64,000 nt of DNA, from NCBI GenBank assembly GCA_003250975.1, contig QKIY01000028.1:195248-259247 (forward strand). The letters run 5' to 3'. This stretch comes from Gammaproteobacteria bacterium (GTDB lineage Bacteria; Pseudomonadota; Gammaproteobacteria; Eutrophobiales; Eutrophobiaceae). The notes under the pieces are model-generated. The model made no database searches, was not told where the DNA came from, and worked only from the letters and a program-made list of their open reading frames with translations. Both the position numbers and the translations under genes were made by a program. Of the stretch, positions 3,017 through 59,293 are shown in pieces; position 1 is the stretch's first letter; each line of letters opens with the position of its first letter.

Positions 3017-3586
3017 ATGTCTACTCGCTGGAAAATTCTCATCGCTATCGCACCGCTGGCGCTTCTCTCCGCCTGGCTGTTCAATGCCGTTAATAAGGAG
3101 ACGGTGACTCCGGGTCCTACCGCGCGCCAGGGACCAGATTATTACATGGTGAACTTCCACTCTCTTGGTATGGACATCAACGGCCGGCCGGACAAAACCC
3201 TTGATGCCCGCTACATGACGCACTATGCAGACCAGGAACTAACCGAACTCGACAAACCGCTTCTGACGGTCTATCGGGAGCCAGGTCTGCCCACGTATAT
3301 TTCGGCCATGAAGGGCAAGGTCAGCGGGGGAAATGAGATTATCCTGTTGCAGGATGATGTAAAATTATGGCGTGAAGGACCGCACGGTAACAGGGAAATG
3401 GAAGTGCAGACCTCCAGGGCAACGCTTTATATTGCGACTGAAATTGCAGAAACCGACAGACCCGCTACCCTGATCCATAACACATCCCGGACGGATACAG
3501 TAGGCCTACGGGCCTTTTTTAAAGAAAACCGGCTTGAACTCCTGAGTAATGTACAGACAACTATACTACCGGAAACTGTTGATTAG
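3017..3586 (+). CDS. lptC: LPS export protein LptC
   Basis: N-terminal membrane anchor, ~190 aa; position between kdsC and lptA. Confidence 0.75.
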   Translation: MSTRWKILIAIAPLALLSAWLFNAVNKETVTPGPTARQGPDYYMVNFHSLGMDINGRPDKTLDARYMTHYADQELTELDKPLLTVYREPGLPTYISAMKGKVSGGNEIILLQDDVKLWREGPHGNREMEVQTSRATLYIATEIAETDRPATLIHNTSRTDTVGLRAFFKENRLELLSNVQTTILPETVD

Positions 3587-4097
3587 CGTCCTCTGCCTGC
3601 TAACAGGCCTGTTGCCGACCGCCCCTGCCTGGGGACTGTCAACCGACCGGGACCAACCGATTGAAATCGAAGCTGATGCGGCCGAACTGGATGATGAAAA
3701 AAAGGTAACTGTCTACACGGGTAATGTCGTCGTGATACAGGGAAGCATCCGTATGACCGGTGACACAATGACAGTCTATTACACTTCTGAGAACGAACTC
3801 GACGTAGTTATCTTGGACGGTAAACCTGCAACCTATCGCCAACTGCCTGACGACAGCGAAGTCTATGACGAGGCAGAGGCACTGCACATGGAATACTATG
3901 GGAAAGACAACTTGATTATCCTGACTGAAAAGGCCCTCGTAAAACAGGAAGGCCTGCGGTTTAGTGGCAAAAGGATTGAGTATGATACGGTGAAGAGCCG
4001 AATAAAGGCCCGTGGTGATACAAAAACACAAATGGGATCTGATGAAAGTGACGAAAACGGCAGGGTAAGGATCACCATTCAACCCAGGAAAAAATAA
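3549..4097 (+). CDS. lptA: LPS export periplasmic protein LptA
   Basis: Signal peptide, OstA-like beta-jellyroll sized protein; overlaps lptC end; precedes lptB. Confidence 0.8.
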   Translation: MYRQLYYRKLLISVLCLLTGLLPTAPAWGLSTDRDQPIEIEADAAELDDEKKVTVYTGNVVVIQGSIRMTGDTMTVYYTSENELDVVILDGKPATYRQLPDDSEVYDEAEALHMEYYGKDNLIILTEKALVKQEGLRFSGKRIEYDTVKSRIKARGDTKTQMGSDESDENGRVRITIQPRKK

Positions 4098-4887: not shown

Positions 4888-4918
4888 AGGGTTCTGCAAA
4901 CCCTTTCTTTATTATTTT
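4888..4918 (+). terminator. weak stem-loop plus T-tract between lptB and rpoN (attenuator-like)
   Basis: AGGGTT-CTGCA-AACCCT followed by TTCTTTATTATTTT. Confidence 0.35.
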
Positions 4919-4935
4919 GAGTTAAAATTATCCTT

Positions 4936-34320: not shown

Positions 34321-36735
<2,415 letters not shown>

Positions 36736-36918
36736 TTCACAGCGTACTGGCCAAGAACCAGGCCAGGAATTTAAAGACGGCAGGAGGCGGAAAGATAGGT
36801 AAAGATATCTCATCAGCTACGAAGTTACCCACCTAAACTATTCATTCTACACCCTTGGGACGCGATGGCAAGCGTAAACCCCTGATCACAAGCCCGGGTA
36901 TTTATCTCTCTAAACCGA

Positions 36919-36932
36919 TTGATATAGATCAA
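36919..36932. promoter_or_regulatory. FNR/CRP-family box 1: TTGATATAGATCAA (perfect TTGAT-N4-ATCAA)
   Basis: Exact match to the FNR consensus half-sites with 4-bp spacer. It lies within a larger palindrome ACCGATTGAT-ATAG-ATCAATCGGT (36914..36937). Confidence 0.6.
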
Positions 36933-36942
36933 TCGGTATCAA

Positions 36943-36956
36943 TTGATCTATATCAA
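36943..36956. promoter_or_regulatory. FNR/CRP-family box 2: TTGATCTATATCAA (perfect TTGAT-N4-ATCAA; inverted copy of box 1)
   Basis: Centre 24 bp downstream of box 1 centre; ~34 bp upstream of a TATATT -10 hexamer (36981..36986). Confidence 0.6.
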
Positions 36957-36980
36957 TGGAATTTTATTTTTTCGTTTGCG

Positions 36981-36986
36981 TATATT
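36981..36986 (+). promoter_or_regulatory. candidate -10 hexamer TATATT for the cytochrome cluster promoter
   Basis: Places the FNR box 2 centre near -43 and box 1 near -67 relative to a TSS around 36993, ~100 nt upstream of the first cytochrome gene. Confidence 0.35.
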
Positions 36987-37092
36987 GCAGCGCATATATA
37001 ATTATATTAAATCTAAGTTTCAAGGCGCACGCTGTCTCAAAGATGAAATGGGGCAAATGGGAATAACAACAATAACAAACGTGTAGAAAATA

Positions 37093-37707
37093 ATGCATTG
37101 GCTAAGAAAAATCTGGAATGCGCTACTTCGCCCAAGTTCCCGTTATTCTCTAGGGGCGGTTCTCCTGGTAGGCGCAGTTGGGGGTGTTCTGTTCTGGGGC
37201 GGATTTAACTGGGCGATGGAAATGACGAATACAGAGGCATTTTGTATCTCCTGCCATGAAATGGAAAACACCGTATATAAGGAATACAAAGAAAAGATCC
37301 ATTACTCCAACAATTCAGGTGTCCGGGCAGTCTGCGCTGACTGCCACGTGCCACATGATTGGGTTCACAAAGTGATTCGCAAGATCAAGGCCAGCAACGA
37401 GCTCTATCACAAGATTATCGGGACAATTGATACCGTTGAGAAATTCGAGGCCAAGCGATTGGAGCTTGCAAAGCATGTCTGGGAGGAAATGAAGGCTAAT
37501 GATTCCAAGGAATGCCGTAACTGTCACAGCATGACCGCTATGGATTTATCCAAGCAAAAACCCCGTGCCCGCGGTCAGCACGAAAGTGCCGCGGAAGAAA
37601 ATCAAACCTGCATCGATTGCCACAAGGGAATTGCCCATAAAGACATTCATAAGGAATTGGAGAAAGAGAAAGAGACTGAACCAACAGAAGAGGATTTTAT
37701 GTTGTGA
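37093..37707 (+). CDS. NapC/NirT/CymA-family membrane-anchored tetrahaem c-type cytochrome (quinol dehydrogenase)
   Basis: N-terminal TM helix (YSLGAVLLVGAVGGVLFWGGF) and four CxxCH motifs (CISCH, CADCH, CRNCH, CIDCH); 204 aa, typical size for this family. Confidence 0.85.
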   Translation: MHWLRKIWNALLRPSSRYSLGAVLLVGAVGGVLFWGGFNWAMEMTNTEAFCISCHEMENTVYKEYKEKIHYSNNSGVRAVCADCHVPHDWVHKVIRKIKASNELYHKIIGTIDTVEKFEAKRLELAKHVWEEMKANDSKECRNCHSMTAMDLSKQKPRARGQHESAAEENQTCIDCHKGIAHKDIHKELEKEKETEPTEEDFML

Positions 37708-37738
37708 TTGTTGACTCATGAAACTAAATGAAAGGTAG

Positions 37739-38713
37739 ATGAACATGAAACGCCGGGAAACACTAAGAAAAAGAAAGCTGTCTCAAGCGACTATTATTAT
37801 CGCTTCTTATTTAATTTCGACTGCGAGCGTACAGGCAATCGATTGGGGCAGCGTTCAAGGGAAAGATGTAACACTTTTTTATCCCGGACAGGCATCCTGG
37901 GAATGGGTGCTGACGAAGTCTGATCATAGTGGGGCTGATAAATTCAAGCAGGGAAAGAATTGCAAGGAATGTCACGAACGTGAAGAAAGCGATATCGGCA
38001 CAAAAATCGTAACGGGCAAGAAACTAGAGCCTGATCCTATTCCCGGCAAAAGCGGCTCGATCAAGGTAAACGTCAAAACCGCCCATGACAGTGAAAAGTT
38101 TTATGTCAGATTTGAGTGGTCTGAGACTCCCCAGGGCGATCAACCAATCATGGATAAAGATTTCGATTCCAAAATAACCGTGATGTTCGATGACGGCAAG
38201 GTACTGGCAGCCAAACGGGCCGGTTGTTGGGGCACATGCCATGACGACGCCGTGAATATGGCAAGCGCACCAACGGGAAAGGAGATCACCAAATACCTTG
38301 CCCAATCACGCACAAAACTCGGACGCAGCGGCGGCGGTGAGAATTATAAATCACCGTCCGAGCTTGATCAGTTACTGAATGAAGGAATATTCATGGAATT
38401 CTGGCAGGCAAAGCTTAATCAAGGTGCAGAACCAGTCGCCGTCGACGGATATATCCTGGATAAACGCCATAAGAATGACAATCCCTTGGTTGATGTCCAG
38501 GCGGAATTTAATGGCGGCAAATGGACTGTTACCATGAGCCGGAAACTGACAGTGTCAGAACCACATAGAAAAAATATCGCGGCCGGGCAAATCTATCCGG
38601 TAGGTTTTGCCCTGCATGATAATCATACCGAACACCGTTATCACTATATTTCACTCGAACATACATTCGCCCTGGACCAGGGTGAGGCGGATTTTATCGC
38701 TGTTAAGAAATAA
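37739..38713 (+). CDS. periplasmic c-type cytochrome, atypical (one CxxCH plus one CxxxCH), candidate electron shuttle
   Basis: Signal peptide ending VQA; CKECH near residue 75 and CWGTCH near residue 165. Otherwise a beta-rich soluble protein of 324 aa. Confidence 0.55.
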   Translation: MNMKRRETLRKRKLSQATIIIASYLISTASVQAIDWGSVQGKDVTLFYPGQASWEWVLTKSDHSGADKFKQGKNCKECHEREESDIGTKIVTGKKLEPDPIPGKSGSIKVNVKTAHDSEKFYVRFEWSETPQGDQPIMDKDFDSKITVMFDDGKVLAAKRAGCWGTCHDDAVNMASAPTGKEITKYLAQSRTKLGRSGGGENYKSPSELDQLLNEGIFMEFWQAKLNQGAEPVAVDGYILDKRHKNDNPLVDVQAEFNGGKWTVTMSRKLTVSEPHRKNIAAGQIYPVGFALHDNHTEHRYHYISLEHTFALDQGEADFIAVKK

Positions 38714-38718
38714 ACATT

Positions 38719-39714
38719 ATGGCTATGGGGGGCATAACAATGATTAATGCCAGTAATAGAAAAATGAAGCTATCAGGAGCCCTGCTTCTGTTAGGTATAT
38801 TCGGCAGCTTTCCGGTCTTCGCTGCCGATGGGGGCACCGATGAGGCGGGAAGAGAATACGCATTGAAAGGTGCAAAGACCTGCCTTAAATGCCACGACGA
38901 ATATCCGGTAAAGAATATTTTTCAGACCCCTCATGTGCAAAAGGCCGACAAGAGAACGCCGTTTGCAGCCCATGAATGTGAGTCCTGTCATGGTGCAAGC
39001 CCGGACCACCTGATAGAGCCGCCCAAAAAGGACCAGGGAGAAAAACATAAACCACCCCATCTCGTATTCGGGCTGAAATCGAAAAACTACAAGGTCTCAA
39101 GCGTTGATGATCAGAACAAAGTCTGTCTTGGGTGCCATGAATCGGGGATAAGGATGCACTGGCGCGGGAGCCAGCACCAGTCTGGTGACGTTCCTTGTGC
39201 GGCCTGTCATGCCATACACCAGCCCAAGGATCCGGTTCTGGTCAAGACCGACCAGGCAGAAGTCTGTTTTGCCTGCCATACCGACAAGCGCGCGCAGTTG
39301 CGCCGCCGTTCCAGACACCCAATCAGGGAAGGCAAGGTGGTATGTGCAGATTGTCACAATCCGCATGGCTCCGCCGGACGCACCTTGCTGGTCAAGAACA
39401 CCGTCAATGAAACCTGTTACCAGTGTCACGCTGAAAAGCGTGGCCCGTTCCTGTGGGAACACCAGCCGGTGAGGGAAGACTGCACAAATTGCCATAATCC
39501 GCACGGCAGCACACAGCAGAGGATGCTGGTACAAAGAACACCTTTCCTCTGCAATAACTGTCATTCGGAACGATTTCATCCGAGCACGCTCAGGGACGGG
39601 AGCGGACTGCCGCCTGTTGGTGCGGACAATCGGTTGCTGGGCAAGGGTTGCTTGAATTGCCATTCAAAGATTCACGGTTCCAATCATCCGTCTGGACCCA
39701 GGTTTACCAGATAA
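38719..39714 (+). CDS. decahaem c-type cytochrome, MtrA/MtoA/PioA/DmsE family
   Basis: Signal peptide (MKLSGALLLLGIFGSFPVFA) and ten CxxCH motifs in ~300 mature residues (CLKCH, CESCH, CLGCH, CAACH, CFACH, CADCH, CYQCH, CTNCH, CNNCH, CLNCH). Size and haem density match periplasmic decahaem conduits. The true start is probably an internal Met (38740 or 38764). Confidence 0.85.
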   Translation: MAMGGITMINASNRKMKLSGALLLLGIFGSFPVFAADGGTDEAGREYALKGAKTCLKCHDEYPVKNIFQTPHVQKADKRTPFAAHECESCHGASPDHLIEPPKKDQGEKHKPPHLVFGLKSKNYKVSSVDDQNKVCLGCHESGIRMHWRGSQHQSGDVPCAACHAIHQPKDPVLVKTDQAEVCFACHTDKRAQLRRRSRHPIREGKVVCADCHNPHGSAGRTLLVKNTVNETCYQCHAEKRGPFLWEHQPVREDCTNCHNPHGSTQQRMLVQRTPFLCNNCHSERFHPSTLRDGSGLPPVGADNRLLGKGCLNCHSKIHGSNHPSGPRFTR

Positions 39715-39777
39715 AGTTATGATGACCGAGCTGAATTTTTCATACAGAGATAAACAAGTTGTAACGGGGGCACTGTC

Positions 39778-42045
39778 ATGAACAAGTTAAAATACAATTT
39801 ATATGTATTGATAGCAGTCGCCTTCCTTTCCTCAAACAACGTCATTGCACAGGAGGAAGGGGGGTTTATGCTTGAGGAAGTTACAGAGGCACCAGCACCT
39901 GTGTATTTCAGTTTTGTTGAAGGTGGCGGCATCTATTCCAGTGCGGATTCCTTCAAATTCGGGGAATACAACGGCCTGGAAGAAGAGGGCTTTTACGCCA
40001 ATTTCAATTTCGGGGTGAGCCTATTGACCGCCTACGATGATAACAGTACGCAGTATGCGGATTTTTCAGGTACCAATGTAGGACTGGATAACCGCTCGTT
40101 GTACGGAGAATACGGTCAACAGGGAAGATACAGTGTCTATGCTGAATATGATCAAATACCCCACAACCGCCTCGATGATGCCCTCACACCCTTTGTCGGC
40201 GCCGGTACGAACAACCAGACCCTGCCGGCCAGCTTTTCTCCTACTGCCACCGTGACCACTCAATTGCCACTGCAATCAACTTTAAACCAGGTGGATGTCG
40301 AAACAGACCGCTATACGGCTGGCGCAGGTTTTACCTGGATCCCCCTGGAAAACTGGCAGTTAAGAGGAAACTACCACCATCAAATCAAGGACGGCACCGA
40401 GACCCTGGCCTCCATATTCGCCCAGGGTGGTGGCGGGAACCTTCGTTCATCGATACTCGTCGTGCCGGTTGATTACCAGTTCGATGAAGCTGATGTAGGC
40501 GTTGCCTATACAACCAAGCAATACCAGGTAGACCTCAGTTATCATTTTTCATACTTCAATAACTCAGAAGGAGCAGTGAACTGGCGCAACCCCTTCAATG
40601 AAGGCGGTGGTGGAACCGGCGCCCGATTCAATGATCCGGGCTTAATCGCAACGGCACCTGACAATACTGCCCACCAGGTGACATTGTCAGGCGGTTATAA
40701 CTTCGGGGCGACTTCCCGCCTATCGGGAAGCTTCTCCTGGGGACAGATGCTGCAGAGTGACAGTTTCTATAACTACAGCGTCAATCCGAGATTCCCCATC
40801 ACCACTCTGCTGCCGCGAGGCGATCTTGACGGGGAGATTCAAACTCTCTTTGCCAACCTGAATTTCACCACGCGGCCAATCAGGAATCTGAGCTTAGGGG
40901 CCCACTATACCTATGATGACAGGGACAACCAGTCCCCTCGGGATGTTTACTCGAGGATCCGGAACGATGCCTCCGCTCAGGCGGATCCTACCGATCCCAC
41001 CGATGAGAATAACAGGGTCCCGCGCCCCTACAGCCTGGAGCGGCATAAGGTTGAACTGGATGCTGACTATCGCCTGACCAGGATATTCAAGCTTGGGGCC
41101 GGCTATGAATTTGAACAAATAGACCGGGATTTATCGGAAGTCGATTCCACCCGGGAGCATACCGGTAAGGTCAAACTTTCCTTGACACCTTACGGCTCAA
41201 CAAGTGGCTGGATTAAATATGCCTTTTCAAGGCGCACCGGGGATGACTATGTCACCAACCTTCCATTCGTTGAAGGACAGACAGCAGCCCATATTGCGAC
41301 CCTGACATTCGATGAGTTGTTCGAGAATGATCCAACACTGCTTAAATGGTATATGAATGATCGGGATAAACATGATGTGAAAGGGAACATCAATTTTACC
41401 CCTGCTAACACGGTGTCATTAGGGTTGACCGGTGGCGTATCCCTTAGTGATTACAATGATTCAACAACCCTCGGACCATCGCTCGGATTACGCAAGGATA
41501 CCAGGGGCTATGGCACCTTCGATTTAGGACTGTATCCAACGGAAAATATTGATACCTATGCCTATGTGACATATGAGCGCATTCAGCGTGAACAGAATGG
41601 CTACGAACGTAACACCGTAGTTACCCCGCTATCCGTGCGTGACCCGGGCAGGTTCTGGGATTTAGATACCATTGACGATGTTTACTCACTCGGTACCGGT
41701 GTTAATATTCGTGACTTGATGGGCGGCAGGGTGGATATCAACGCAGATTACACATTTTCCTACGCTGACACCGAAATCGACCCTGTAGGCGGCACCACTC
41801 TACAACCCGTTTTCGATCTCACTCACCTGACGACGAGGACACACAGCTTTAACATCACGGGCGATTACAGGCTGAGAGATAATATGAAAGTAAGGCTTGC
41901 TTATCTCTTTGAATACTTCAAAACACGTGATTTTTCCCTTAGCCAGGTGTACCCGGATTCGTTAAATAACGTTCTTTTACTCGGTAACACCGATCCGAAT
42001 TACACAGCCCATGTAGGCTGGCTCTCATTCATTTATGAATTCTAG
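39778..42045 (+). CDS. outer-membrane beta-barrel, MtrB/MtoB/PioB-like (decahaem-associated porin)
   Basis: Signal peptide (MNKLKYNLYVLIAVAFLSSNNVIAQ). 755 aa rich in Y/G/N/D/T with alternating amphipathic beta-strand pattern. C-terminal ...SFIYEF with terminal Phe. Immediately follows the decahaem gene. Confidence 0.65.
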   Translation: MNKLKYNLYVLIAVAFLSSNNVIAQEEGGFMLEEVTEAPAPVYFSFVEGGGIYSSADSFKFGEYNGLEEEGFYANFNFGVSLLTAYDDNSTQYADFSGTNVGLDNRSLYGEYGQQGRYSVYAEYDQIPHNRLDDALTPFVGAGTNNQTLPASFSPTATVTTQLPLQSTLNQVDVETDRYTAGAGFTWIPLENWQLRGNYHHQIKDGTETLASIFAQGGGGNLRSSILVVPVDYQFDEADVGVAYTTKQYQVDLSYHFSYFNNSEGAVNWRNPFNEGGGGTGARFNDPGLIATAPDNTAHQVTLSGGYNFGATSRLSGSFSWGQMLQSDSFYNYSVNPRFPITTLLPRGDLDGEIQTLFANLNFTTRPIRNLSLGAHYTYDDRDNQSPRDVYSRIRNDASAQADPTDPTDENNRVPRPYSLERHKVELDADYRLTRIFKLGAGYEFEQIDRDLSEVDSTREHTGKVKLSLTPYGSTSGWIKYAFSRRTGDDYVTNLPFVEGQTAAHIATLTFDELFENDPTLLKWYMNDRDKHDVKGNINFTPANTVSLGLTGGVSLSDYNDSTTLGPSLGLRKDTRGYGTFDLGLYPTENIDTYAYVTYERIQREQNGYERNTVVTPLSVRDPGRFWDLDTIDDVYSLGTGVNIRDLMGGRVDINADYTFSYADTEIDPVGGTTLQPVFDLTHLTTRTHSFNITGDYRLRDNMKVRLAYLFEYFKTRDFSLSQVYPDSLNNVLLLGNTDPNYTAHVGWLSFIYEF

Positions 42046-42071
42046 GGGGTGTTTCTGATATTCAAGCTAAC

Positions 42072-42102
42072 ATGCATGACAGGCAGAATGCCTGTCATGC
42101 AT
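42072..42102. terminator. strong 13-bp-stem hairpin between convergent barrel gene and comF
   Basis: ATGCATGACAGGC-agaat-GCCTGTCATGCAT, perfect stem; no obvious T-tract on either side. Confidence 0.45.
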
Positions 42103-42144
42103 ATCTGAACAGAAATATCTTGCCGTTTTCCCCTGATTGACTGA

Positions 42145-42894
42145 TCACTCCTGACCTGGGCGTGCGCAGACCCAGGCATCAACCCGACTGGCCCCTGCCC
42201 GTTTTAAAGCCCGGGCGGCCTCGCGCAGGGTTGCCCCCGTCGTCATAACATCATCTATCAATGCCAGATGGCGGCCGCGCACATCCGCGTTGGCGGTTAG
42301 GGCAAAGGCGCCCCTCATGTTGCGGCGGCGTTGCGGCCTTTTCAGCCCGCTCTGGGCAATGGTCGGGCGCAGCCTTTGCAAAGTGTGGATTGTTGCCGGG
42401 ATTCCCGTGGCAGCGGAAAATGCCCTTGCCAGGCAGGCAGACTGGTTGTAACCGCGTTCCCGCAGCCGCCCCCTGTGCAATGGGATGGGGATCAGTTGCT
42501 CGGGCAGAACCAGGAGCCCGGCCTCAGCCAATCCATGGTAGGCAAGCGCGAAAAACCCGGCCAGCCCGGGGCGGGCGTGGAACTTCATCTCCTGTATCAC
42601 CCGGTCCACGGGATAGCTATAGCGGAAGGGCGCAATCACCACATCGAGAGCTGGTCCCGCGGCCCCCAGGCACTCGGCACAGATCTGACCATGGCAGTCC
42701 GGCAGGGCGCAGACGGGACAGGGGTCTCTATTAAGCGGGAGTTCCCGCAGGCAAGGCGTGCAAACGGGCAAGCGGCCTGAAGGGGCGTAGCACAAAAAGC
42801 AGCTACCTGGGATAGATTGGTCATTTATTAACCACCTGTTAAGACCATGCCGGGCCATTAACTTGACTGCCGTATCTTTCAGTGTAATCTCCAT
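42145..42894 (-). CDS. comF: ComF-family protein (phosphoribosyltransferase domain, N-terminal Cys4 zinc finger)
   Basis: CFLCYA...CTPC...CPVC...CAEC zinc-ribbon cysteines; C-terminal PRTase motif LALIDDVMTTGATL. ORF-track start 42996 would overlap bioB, so I trimmed to Met at 42894. Confidence 0.75.
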   Translation of the reverse strand: MEITLKDTAVKLMARHGLNRWLINDQSIPGSCFLCYAPSGRLPVCTPCLRELPLNRDPCPVCALPDCHGQICAECLGAAGPALDVVIAPFRYSYPVDRVIQEMKFHARPGLAGFFALAYHGLAEAGLLVLPEQLIPIPLHRGRLRERGYNQSACLARAFSAATGIPATIHTLQRLRPTIAQSGLKRPQRRRNMRGAFALTANADVRGRHLALIDDVMTTGATLREAARALKRAGASRVDAWVCARPGQE

Positions 42895-57650: not shown

Positions 57651-58385
57651 TTAATAATCACATTTAAAAAAGTAATCATTTGAACCAGAATATTGTTCAG
57701 CCTTTGACAGATTTCCATCCTTATCCATCAGAAATGAGTGATATCCATATTCACTAAGGAACCGCCAGATATCATCCGGTTTGTAATTCATTCTGGCCGC
57801 CAGGCTTTCGTCAATTTCCAAATATAATATTGGCCTGAATTTTTTTAATACATTTTGTGCGCCACGTAGTACTAGTAATTCACTTCCTTCCACATCGATT
57901 TTAATAAAGTCGATTTTATTGATGGAATTCTTCTCAATATAAGAATCAAGCGTAACGGTTCTTATTTTTTCGGAAATATAATCACGTGAAGCTTCCGCTC
58001 CAAAATGTGAAAGGCCTATTCCGAGCTTTCCACTTTCTTTCACGGGAATAATTATTTCCTGTTCGCCATTAGTCTCTGATAATGCAAGATGCTCAATTTT
58101 CACGTTTGGCAGCTTGCCCACTATTAATTTCAGTATTGAATGGCAATAGTCAACTGGTTCAAAAGCGATTACCAGTACACTGTGGTCATGTATCATGGCA
58201 TATTCTTTGGTTAAATATCCAAAGTGTGCGCCAACTTCAATAACCACGCCGTTTTGCCGAATATGTTTAGACATGGCCATAACACGTGGCCTCTCCTTGT
58301 GTTTGTAGCGAGCCTTCAAATAATGGAGAAGCCAGGCAAATTTTTGCTTCGGATTTTTATAAACTTTTGTTCTATCCAGTTGCAT
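57651..58385 (-). CDS. FkbM-family SAM-dependent methyltransferase
   Basis: VIEVGAHFGYLTKEYA SAM-binding motif, 244 aa; markedly AT-rich coding sequence relative to neighbours. Confidence 0.7.
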   Translation of the reverse strand: MQLDRTKVYKNPKQKFAWLLHYLKARYKHKERPRVMAMSKHIRQNGVVIEVGAHFGYLTKEYAMIHDHSVLVIAFEPVDYCHSILKLIVGKLPNVKIEHLALSETNGEQEIIIPVKESGKLGIGLSHFGAEASRDYISEKIRTVTLDSYIEKNSINKIDFIKIDVEGSELLVLRGAQNVLKKFRPILYLEIDESLAARMNYKPDDIWRFLSEYGYHSFLMDKDGNLSKAEQYSGSNDYFFKCDY

Positions 58386-58449: not shown

Positions 58450-59184
58450 TCAGAGAATTTCTTCAAGGAATGCCAGAAAGCGTTTCCACGATGCCTTGTC
58501 GGCGTCCTCGCGGTAGCGGTCCGAACCATACACGGTAAAGGCATGAGGGGCGCCCGCATAGGTGATCATCTCGTGTGCAACACCGTACTGTTCCAGTTCG
58601 GACTTTAGTTCATTAAAGTCATCCATGGTCACGGCCGTGTCGGCCTCGCCGTGAAAAACCAGCACCTTTCCGCTGGTACGGCTGTAGTCCTGTCCTTCCG
58701 GTGTCTTGAGGCCGCCGTGAAAGGTCACAAAACCCTTCATGGGTGCGCCGGAACGCGCCAGTTCTAGTACGGCGGCGCCACCGAAACAGTAGCCCATCGC
58801 AACGGCATTACCGATATTTGCGCCCCTGCTTATAGCGGCATCGATCGCCCCGATCATGAGTGCACGCATTTTATTCCGGTTTTTATACAGCTCGCCGGTA
58901 TGCAGTCGCTTGTCCCTATCCTCAGTGGGCCGTACACCCTTGCCGTACAGGTCCGCCGCAAATACGGCATAGCCTTTTTCCGCCAGCATGTCTGCACGCT
59001 TGATCTCGTAATCCGTCAGTCCGTCCCAGTCATGCAGTAACAGGATAAAGGGTGCGCCGGGTGACGGATTGTTGTAATAACCTTCATAGGTCACGCCGTT
59101 AACTTTATATAATACGGTTTCCCCTGCTGCATGCACGGAGGAGGTGATGGTCAGGAAAATCAAGGATAAGAATATTGATCTCAT
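58450..59184 (-). CDS. dienelactone hydrolase family protein (secreted)
   Basis: Signal peptide; GYCFGG nucleophile elbow with Cys; Asp and His triad downstream. Confidence 0.8.
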   Translation of the reverse strand: MRSIFLSLIFLTITSSVHAAGETVLYKVNGVTYEGYYNNPSPGAPFILLLHDWDGLTDYEIKRADMLAEKGYAVFAADLYGKGVRPTEDRDKRLHTGELYKNRNKMRALMIGAIDAAISRGANIGNAVAMGYCFGGAAVLELARSGAPMKGFVTFHGGLKTPEGQDYSRTSGKVLVFHGEADTAVTMDDFNELKSELEQYGVAHEMITYAGAPHAFTVYGSDRYREDADKASWKRFLAFLEEIL

Positions 59185-59293
59185 GATGTGCTCCCTATTT
59201 TTCCGGTTTTTTCAATATGAAAGTTGATGATTTGATTAGTTTCAACTCCCGCTATTCTGAAGATGTCGCCATCGACTGCTTCAAGCAGAGTTA

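Follow-up and report, generated by a model that had tools for sequence, protein, structure and literature searches.

The question raised by this locus is what controls a cluster of four genes for a cytochrome-porin conduit in an uncultured gammaproteobacterium. MtrAB/MtoAB-type porin-cytochrome conduits serve iron oxidation or reduction by carrying electrons through the outer membrane, and to our knowledge Shewanella (CRP) and Rhodopseudomonas (FixK) are the only hosts in which experiments have shown how they are regulated. The cluster lies in a 64-kb stretch of contig QKIY01000028.1 (assembly GCA_003250975.1), the whole of which is called the window here, and is preceded by a gap of 357 bp, from the gyrB stop codon (36735) to the ATG at 37093, with a G+C fraction of 0.40 vs 0.515 for the window as a whole. 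In this gap a first-pass annotation had marked two exact matches to the FNR consensus TTGAT-N4-ATCAA, 24 bp apart from centre to centre and followed by a TATATT hexamer, and had proposed that a regulator of the FNR/ANR/DNR family activates the conduit genes through them. Direct reading of the sequence bore out both matches, their spacing and the hexamer (Table 1). The proposed control is supported at the level of the regulator family, as a prediction from sequence, by the presence of the box in orthologous clusters, by its class II distance to a -10-like hexamer, and by a regulator gene with an E--SR recognition helix that adjoins the cluster in one relative. We consider it about 75% probable that in the promoter of the cymA-like/EB_dh/mtrA-like/mtrB-like cluster the boxes are the part bound by a regulator, with the proximal box as its class II operator and the distal box as a second candidate site.

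Sequence and enrichment of the boxes

TTGAT-N4-ATCAA is matched at all ten positions only twice in the 64 kb, at 36919 and 36943, where 0.12 occurrences would be expected, and two or more perfect boxes anywhere in the window were seen in 1 of 100 dinucleotide shuffles. At the local composition of the gap the expected number of perfect boxes is 0.00085; at least one was present in 184 of 200,000 shuffles and two in none, in agreement with the earlier remark that two such sites are improbable by chance in a short AT-rich leader. Allowing one mismatch added just two sites across the window, which is the chance level, and no second close pair of perfect boxes was found in 1.46 Mb of fetched loci. 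The shuffle statistics and the conservation described below exclude chance as the source of the boxes.

The larger palindrome with an ATAG middle that the first-pass annotation had drawn around the first box is perfect over 10+10 bp. The same annotation saw only in part the 16-bp inverted repeat that takes in both boxes. Two Logan assemblies of the same strain (L001 and L002), which carry an identical cluster, have contigs that end 62-74 nt upstream of cymA in an AT-rich low-complexity stretch just downstream of the boxes, so that the double box is read from the assembly of the window and is not covered by these contigs.

Box-like sequences were also noted elsewhere. A one-mismatch box (TTGATTAGTTTCAA) at 59232-59245 precedes a dienelactone-hydrolase gene (58450-59184, -) by about 50 bp, and pairs of one-mismatch boxes at 31 bp are present in two metagenome contigs, L113 (198-242) and L148 (195-239). 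Beside an alphaproteobacterial mtrAB, locus L039 has a 23-bp box pair (4889-4925; TTGATAATAATCAT / TTGATAATTATCAA) that is also Fur-box-like. GATC occurs 386 times in the window, compared with about 249 expected from base composition, and is found inside both boxes (36927 and 36945) and most orthologous boxes (TTGATC..GATCAA); in principle the boxes might be affected by Dam-type methylation.

Conservation of the proximal box

Relatives of the cluster were reached through a protein database and exact look-ups; a CymA-like query against two large genome and metagenome collections returned only NapC/NirT proteins of at most 69% identity, mostly from nap or nir operons. Upstream of the orthologous clusters the box reads TTGATCTAGGTCAA in L163 (CymA 82%), where the next gene upstream lies beyond the contig end, TTGATCTATATCAA in L164 (CymA 80%), downstream of a porin-like gene, TTGATTTAGATCAA in L165/L166 (CymA 71%), next to an SBF transporter, and TTGATTTAAATCAA in L175 (CymA 71%), next to tRNA-Pro. 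In L167-L169 (CymA 66%; neighbours a PAS kinase and a GAF gene) it reads TTGATCTGGATCAA and stands before the GAF gene that precedes cymA, and in L170/L172 (CymA 67%) TTGATGCAGGTCAA is accompanied by one perfect and one near-perfect box and by a divergent CRP/FNR-family gene. L174 (CymA 74%) lies after a NapB-like gene and was therefore left out of the set of orthologous promoters.

These boxes lie 76-205 nt upstream of the first gene, and in the multiple alignment they form an invariant island that corresponds to the proximal box of the window, with which the single boxes of the L163, L164, L165 and L167 promoters align. Judged from these sequences, at least six other lineages, in which the adjoining genes are unrelated, have kept the proximal box ahead of this four-gene cluster. 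Among more distant Mtr loci with other gene orders, a perfect box precedes the first gene in L046 (TTGATCCTGATCAA), L039 (TTGATTTTTATCAA) and L106; those of L046 and L039 are counted in the range of 76-205 nt. The motif was defined from ten boxes, namely the two of the window and those of L163, L164, L165, L175, L167, L170, L046 and L039.

Two further blocks are common to the window and the L163 and L164 promoters. One, CAAGCrTAAAyyCC...CACrCCC at 36866-36896, precedes the proximal box by about 55-85 nt. The second, the motif (C)AGATGGGG at 37036-37060, belongs to the 5' leader, where it lies about 35-50 nt ahead of the ATG and opens very short open reading frames of 4-12 codons.

Promoter geometry and a candidate regulator

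The most likely -10 hexamer was identified by homology, judged from the shared context in pairwise alignments (TGCGTATATT in the window, TGCGTATACT in L164). Six of eight relatives (L163, L164, L165, L175, L170 and L046) have a [T/C]ANNNT hexamer that begins 21-22 nt beyond the box, a spacing that would centre the box at about -40.5 to -41.5. The hexamer of the window begins 24 nt beyond the proximal box, from which centres near -43 for the proximal and -67 for the distal box are predicted, the same positions as in the first-pass estimate. Among FNR-activated promoters of Escherichia coli, 19 of 23 have a site at -41.5 +/- 4, and that of frdA is at -45.5 (PMC3688515).

A candidate for the type of protein that reads the box comes from L170 (GCA_016179185.1), where the divergent gene adjoining the cluster (3108-3794, -) encodes cNMP_binding and HTH_Crp_2 domains. 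Its recognition helix, SETLSR, aligns with the ETISR of solved FNR; this E--SR signature separates TTGAT-reading FNR-type proteins from TGTGA-reading CRP, as described by Spiro, Bell, Guest and co-workers. Three FNR-type boxes, at 3876, 4007 and 4165, lie between the regulator gene and the cluster, and the perfect one among them is 82 bp upstream of the regulator gene, an arrangement that suggests autoregulation. The protein has no N-terminal cysteine cluster and scores far below the family cut-offs for Fnr, FnrL, FixK and CRP. The family is therefore supported, the sensed signal may be oxygen, nitric oxide (NO) or a cascade, and the cautious wording "FNR/ANR/DNR-family" of the earlier proposal is apt.

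In the mechanism we propose, a dimeric CRP/FNR-family activator would read the TTGAT half-sites of the proximal box through its E--SR recognition helix, centred 31.5 bp upstream of TATATT and at about -43 from a start near 36991-36993. As a class II dimer it would contact RNA polymerase and substitute for the missing -35 element, and the operon would be on when the regulator is active. With an FNR/ANR-type iron-sulphur regulator the signal would be low oxygen; with a regulator of the DNR/NnrR or FixK type it would be NO or an upstream cascade.

Several observations weigh against this model. The window holds no CRP/FNR-family gene: tblastn and phmmer searches of all 246 open reading frames, with E. 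coli FNR, CRP and the L170 regulator as queries, returned none even at E values up to 10. (A weak tblastn match at 58047-58178 was ruled out as a regulator, since it corresponds to an FkbM methyltransferase.) Three distant clusters, L088, L096 and L029, have no box at up to two mismatches in the available upstream sequence. The spacer between box and -10 hexamer is 3 bp longer in the window than in the relatives, and two further -10-like hexamers follow the homologous TATATT; both fall in a segment of about 22 nt (36987-37009) that is absent from L164 and may be a local duplication. Transcription from one of these hexamers would instead give the boxes positions of about -60/-84 or -66/-90, and because of the longer spacer and the extra hexamers the positions -43/-67 are a prediction only. 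The distal box is not conserved among the relatives, and its offset of 24 bp, about 2.3 helical turns, is out of phase with the classic class I positions. The proximal box very probably serves as the operator through which an FNR-family activator turns on the conduit operon from a class II position.

Role of the distal box

At up to two mismatches no second site was found within 80 bp of the box in L163, L164, L165, L175, L167, L170 or L046, and L039 has one two-mismatch site 67 bp upstream of its box. Since relatives are missing a second site, parsimony indicates that the distal box was gained in the lineage of the window. It duplicates the proximal box exactly in inverted orientation, a recent copy that was probably generated by a template-switch or palindrome-forming event and probably also binds the regulator; because it matches the consensus perfectly, it would most likely be occupied by a second dimer near -67. 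Such a dimer could raise occupancy, co-activate or damp expression, all of which are compatible with the sequence. The offset of 24 bp departs from the multiples of about 10.5 bp that would place two dimers on the same helical face, as in a tandem-site (class III-like) promoter.

A reading that we consider unlikely is that the proximal box works alone in an ordinary single-site class II promoter and that a palindrome-generating (template-switch) mutation produced the distal box as a neutral side effect without regulatory influence. All the relatives manage with a single box, and the distal box repeats the proximal one, inverted, over 16 bp that include the unconstrained N4 and the flanks, an identity that points to a copy event and not to selection for a second site. 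The offset out of helical phase fits this reading as well, as do the single sites in 89% of E. coli FNR peaks (PMC3688515) and the pioABC promoter, where FixK bound just the proximal of two canonical boxes in vitro (PMC3050613). Against it, deletion of the distal pio box altered expression in vivo (PMC3050613), and a perfect site is expected to be occupied whenever the regulator is active; the amount of FNR in E. coli cells suffices to saturate even weak sites (PMC3688515). A dimer 24 bp upstream would moreover occupy the usual docking place of the C-terminal domain of the RNA polymerase alpha subunit, so that some effect is likely.

The conduit module and its insertion

The four genes 3' of the boxes are closely packed, and dnaA, dnaN, recF and gyrB lie upstream on the same strand. 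Domain matches of the four genes (Table 1) confirm the first-pass view of the downstream cluster as a cytochrome conduit. The EB_dh protein, of about 320 amino acids, is encoded in every orthologous cluster (for example L165, 3874-4836; L167, 6634-7596; L170, 5037-5999). In the literature searched, no paper was found that links PF09459 with MtrB, or mtoAB with FNR.

Table 1. Features of the window that bear on the conduit promoter and its surroundings.
Feature	Coordinates	Strand	Remarks
Distal FNR-type box, TTGATATAGATCAA	36919-36932		Perfect consensus; centre 36925.5, predicted at about -67; lineage-specific exact inverted copy of the proximal box
Proximal FNR-type box, TTGATCTATATCAA	36943-36956		Perfect consensus; centre 36949.5; conserved operator, predicted class II at about -43
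Extended 10-N4-10 palindrome around the distal box, ACCGATTGAT-ATAG-ATCAATCGGT	36914-36937		Perfect, read from the sequence
Perfect 16-bp inverted repeat, ATTGATATAGATCAAT / ATTGATCTATATCAAT	36918-36957	+	Two boxes plus one flanking base each; 8-nt loop
T-rich spacer from box to -10, TTTTATTTTTT	36962-36972	+	T-rich spacer also in hairpin-less L164
TATATT, most likely -10 hexamer	36981-36986	+	Homologue of L164 TATACT and L163 TACACT; shared TGCGTATA context
Extra -10-like hexamers, TATAAT (36997-37002) and TATATT (37004-37009)	36997-37009	+	Candidate alternative promoters
gyrB, co-directional upstream neighbour	34327-36735	+	Last of dnaA-dnaN-recF-gyrB; Pfam; 87% identical to P0137
NapC/NirT-family tetrahaem quinol dehydrogenase, cymA-like	37093-37707	+	First operon gene; PF03264, E 1.4e-77; NCBIfam napC_nirT
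EB_dh-domain protein (haem b, DMSO-reductase type II gamma-like)	37739-38713	+	PF09459, E 1.5e-32; TIGR03477 weak
MtrA/DmsE-family decahaem cytochrome	38719-39714	+	TIGR03508, E 2.3e-89; Paired_CXXCH
MtrB/PioB outer-membrane porin	39778-42045	+	PF11854, E 3.2e-147
5.4-kb module (promoter, four genes and hairpin)	36738-42138	+	Absent from nearest relative; flanking 7-bp direct repeat

By GyrB (87% identity) the nearest relative is represented by L178-L181, which include GCA_041556555.1. These have the order trmE-yidC-rnpA-dnaA-dnaN-recF-gyrB, then comF-bioB-bioF-...-cox, as in the window, with the module absent and gyrB abutting comF at a distance of 4 bp. Synteny breaks at position 36737 of the window and resumes at 42161, and the heptamer CCTGATT, which includes the gyrB stop codon, stands as a direct repeat at 36731-36737 and 42132-42138 and occurs once in the relative. 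Apart from this repeat the ends of the module show no terminal inverted repeats or transposase remnants; the module is without a transposase or integrase, and its G+C content is slightly below that of the flanks. From this comparison we conclude that the 5.4-kb module was acquired horizontally and landed between gyrB and comF. Homology of the promoter to those of L164 and L163 extends over about 140 nt upstream of the box, and the promoter therefore arrived with the module. On the mechanism proposed above, the promoter would travel with the module and the regulator would be supplied from elsewhere in the genome.

Two features of the module family are recorded here as observations. A protein of about 215 amino acids with a GAF domain and a hydrophobic C-terminus is encoded just before cymA in several relatives and after mtrB in L170 (L167, 5257-5904; L177, 3-650; L173, 1-168; L170, 9361-10017); it has no NCBIfam match, and no homologue was found in the window. 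A perfect 14-bp inverted repeat (ATGCATGACAGGCA / TGCCTGTCATGCAT, 42072-42102) in the space where mtrB and comF converge would fold into a hairpin of -24 kcal/mol (z -5.5), which has no T-run on either strand and is probably the module's own bidirectional transcript end.

The inverted repeat as RNA

Read as RNA, the boxes pair over 16-18 bp into a hairpin of -21 kcal/mol (z -3.8 to -5.6), a fold that no shuffle equalled, located 183 nt after the gyrB stop and followed by GGAAUUUUAUUUUUU. This raises a reading that we regard as improbable, in which the inverted repeat acts mainly or additionally in RNA: in gyrB read-through transcripts the hairpin and UUUUAUUUUUU would terminate or pause transcription and so insulate the operon from aerobic expression, and the distal box would have been selected because it completes the hairpin. 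A stable hairpin (z -5.55) does follow a co-directional gene here, and a lenient consensus scan marks it as terminator-like. In the sister genome gyrB runs directly into the convergent comF and a terminator is not needed, so that insertion of the module after gyrB would have created a read-through problem, and gyrB has just one further hairpin behind it, a weak one (-11.8 kcal/mol, z -1.7, no T-run).

The structure itself, however, lacks the G+C-rich stem and immediate U-tract of a rho-independent terminator. The stem is AU-rich, with G-C pairs at 3 of 16 positions, and the four non-U bases GGAA stand between it and the U-run, which gives a d'Aubenton-Carafa-type tail score of 0.62 vs >5 for a model tail. 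Since L164 shares the T-rich stretch but forms no hairpin, this stretch is part of the promoter spacer. The hairpin is not conserved in any relative, and an Rfam scan of 36600-37200 matched no family (best 21 bits vs a gathering score of 46, E about 0.7).

A related idea, to which we give equally long odds, is that a dual-purpose element arose after the module had landed behind gyrB, with DNA that binds two FNR-family dimers and read-through RNA whose hairpin and U-run stop or pause the polymerase. If true, one short palindrome of 40 nt would both insulate a new operon from a housekeeping promoter and give it anaerobic control, and the bound regulator could also act as a roadblock.

Other binding proteins

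It is very improbable that the boxes are repression operators, sites for Fur, CRP, ArcA, NarL or DnaA, or a palindrome that arose by chance in AT-rich DNA. In favour of such readings, sites that overlap or flank the core promoter allow FNR-family proteins to repress (PMC3688515), the box region adjoins dnaA-dnaN-recF-gyrB, and the 23-bp AT-rich pair of L039 is as much Fur-like as FNR-like. Against them, the boxes lie upstream of the -10 hexamer without overlapping it, and chance is excluded by the shuffles and the conservation. Fur sites (up to five mismatches), CRP sites (up to two mismatches) and ArcA sites were dropped, as none was found in the gap, where a single isolated NarL heptamer is present on the other strand. 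An origin element was likewise dropped, as 36736-37092 has no DnaA box (TTATCCACA, up to one mismatch). Perfect DnaA boxes do occur just upstream of dnaA (30492, -) and between dnaA and dnaN (32052, +); these likely belong to the dnaA promoter or an origin-proximal region and are unrelated to the FNR boxes.

Comparison with known systems

Taken together, the sequences suggest that an FNR-type class II promoter is built into a whole family of cymA-EB_dh-mtrA-mtrB modules of uncultured gammaproteobacteria, and that these modules may move between genomes with their promoter and borrow the oxygen or NO sensor of the host. The prediction that follows is expression of the conduits at low oxygen in sediments and aquifers, and the box with its spacing offers a simple cis-marker for annotating such modules. 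To a specialist, FNR-type control would come as no surprise, because it is the default expectation for anaerobic respiratory genes, and the locus is best seen as a convincing but ordinary example of a well-known type of anaerobic switch.

Two FNR sites on one promoter are reportedly also found in E. coli yfiD, with tandem sites at -40.5/-93.5 whose upstream dimer is said to modulate the class II site. There the upstream site reportedly lies five helical turns away and down-regulates, whereas here the sites abut at 24 bp. With omcA/mtrC of Shewanella oneidensis the promoter shares, as predicted here, a CRP/FNR-superfamily activator acting on Mtr conduit genes (Kasai et al. 2015, PMC4417206); the Shewanella site, however, is TGTGA/TCACA at a class I position of -61.5 and responds to cAMP (PMC4417206), and no such motif is present here. 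The lack of a regulator gene in the 5.4-kb module has a parallel in cld of Ideonella, a mobile respiratory gene with a class II FNR box and no fnr on the element, which needs the regulator of the recipient (PMC7349173). Unlike cld, which is flanked by insertion sequences, the module is bordered by a 7-bp direct repeat and has no transposase.

The pioABC operon of Rhodopseudomonas palustris TIE-1 (Bose and Newman 2011, PMC3050613) resembles the cluster in its MtrA and MtrB homologues, PioA and PioB, and in its two canonical CRP/FNR-family boxes. Its proximal FixK box is class II, with its edge 37 bp from the start, and is bound in vitro, and expression is induced by anoxia (PMC3050613). It differs in the wider spacing of its boxes, which lie about 93 bp from each other (about -44 and -137.5), compared with 24 bp here, and form no inverted-repeat hairpin, and also in that pioC takes the place of cymA and EB_dh and the host is an alphaproteobacterium with a FixLJ-FixK cascade (PMC3050613). 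The class II FNR promoters of E. coli (narG, dmsA, nirB, nrfA) share with the present one exact half-sites just upstream of the -10 hexamer, no recognisable -35 element, and downstream genes of anaerobic respiration that include NapC/NirT relatives, and the predicted position of about -43 falls within the +/-4 nt range of 19 of 23 promoters (PMC3688515). They differ in that the regulator here may not be an iron-sulphur FNR, that a second perfect site lies 24 bp upstream, and that the host is an uncultured gammaproteobacterium. By analogy, then, the closest precedents are the class II FNR promoters of E. coli and the two-box, FixK-dependent promoter of pioABC.

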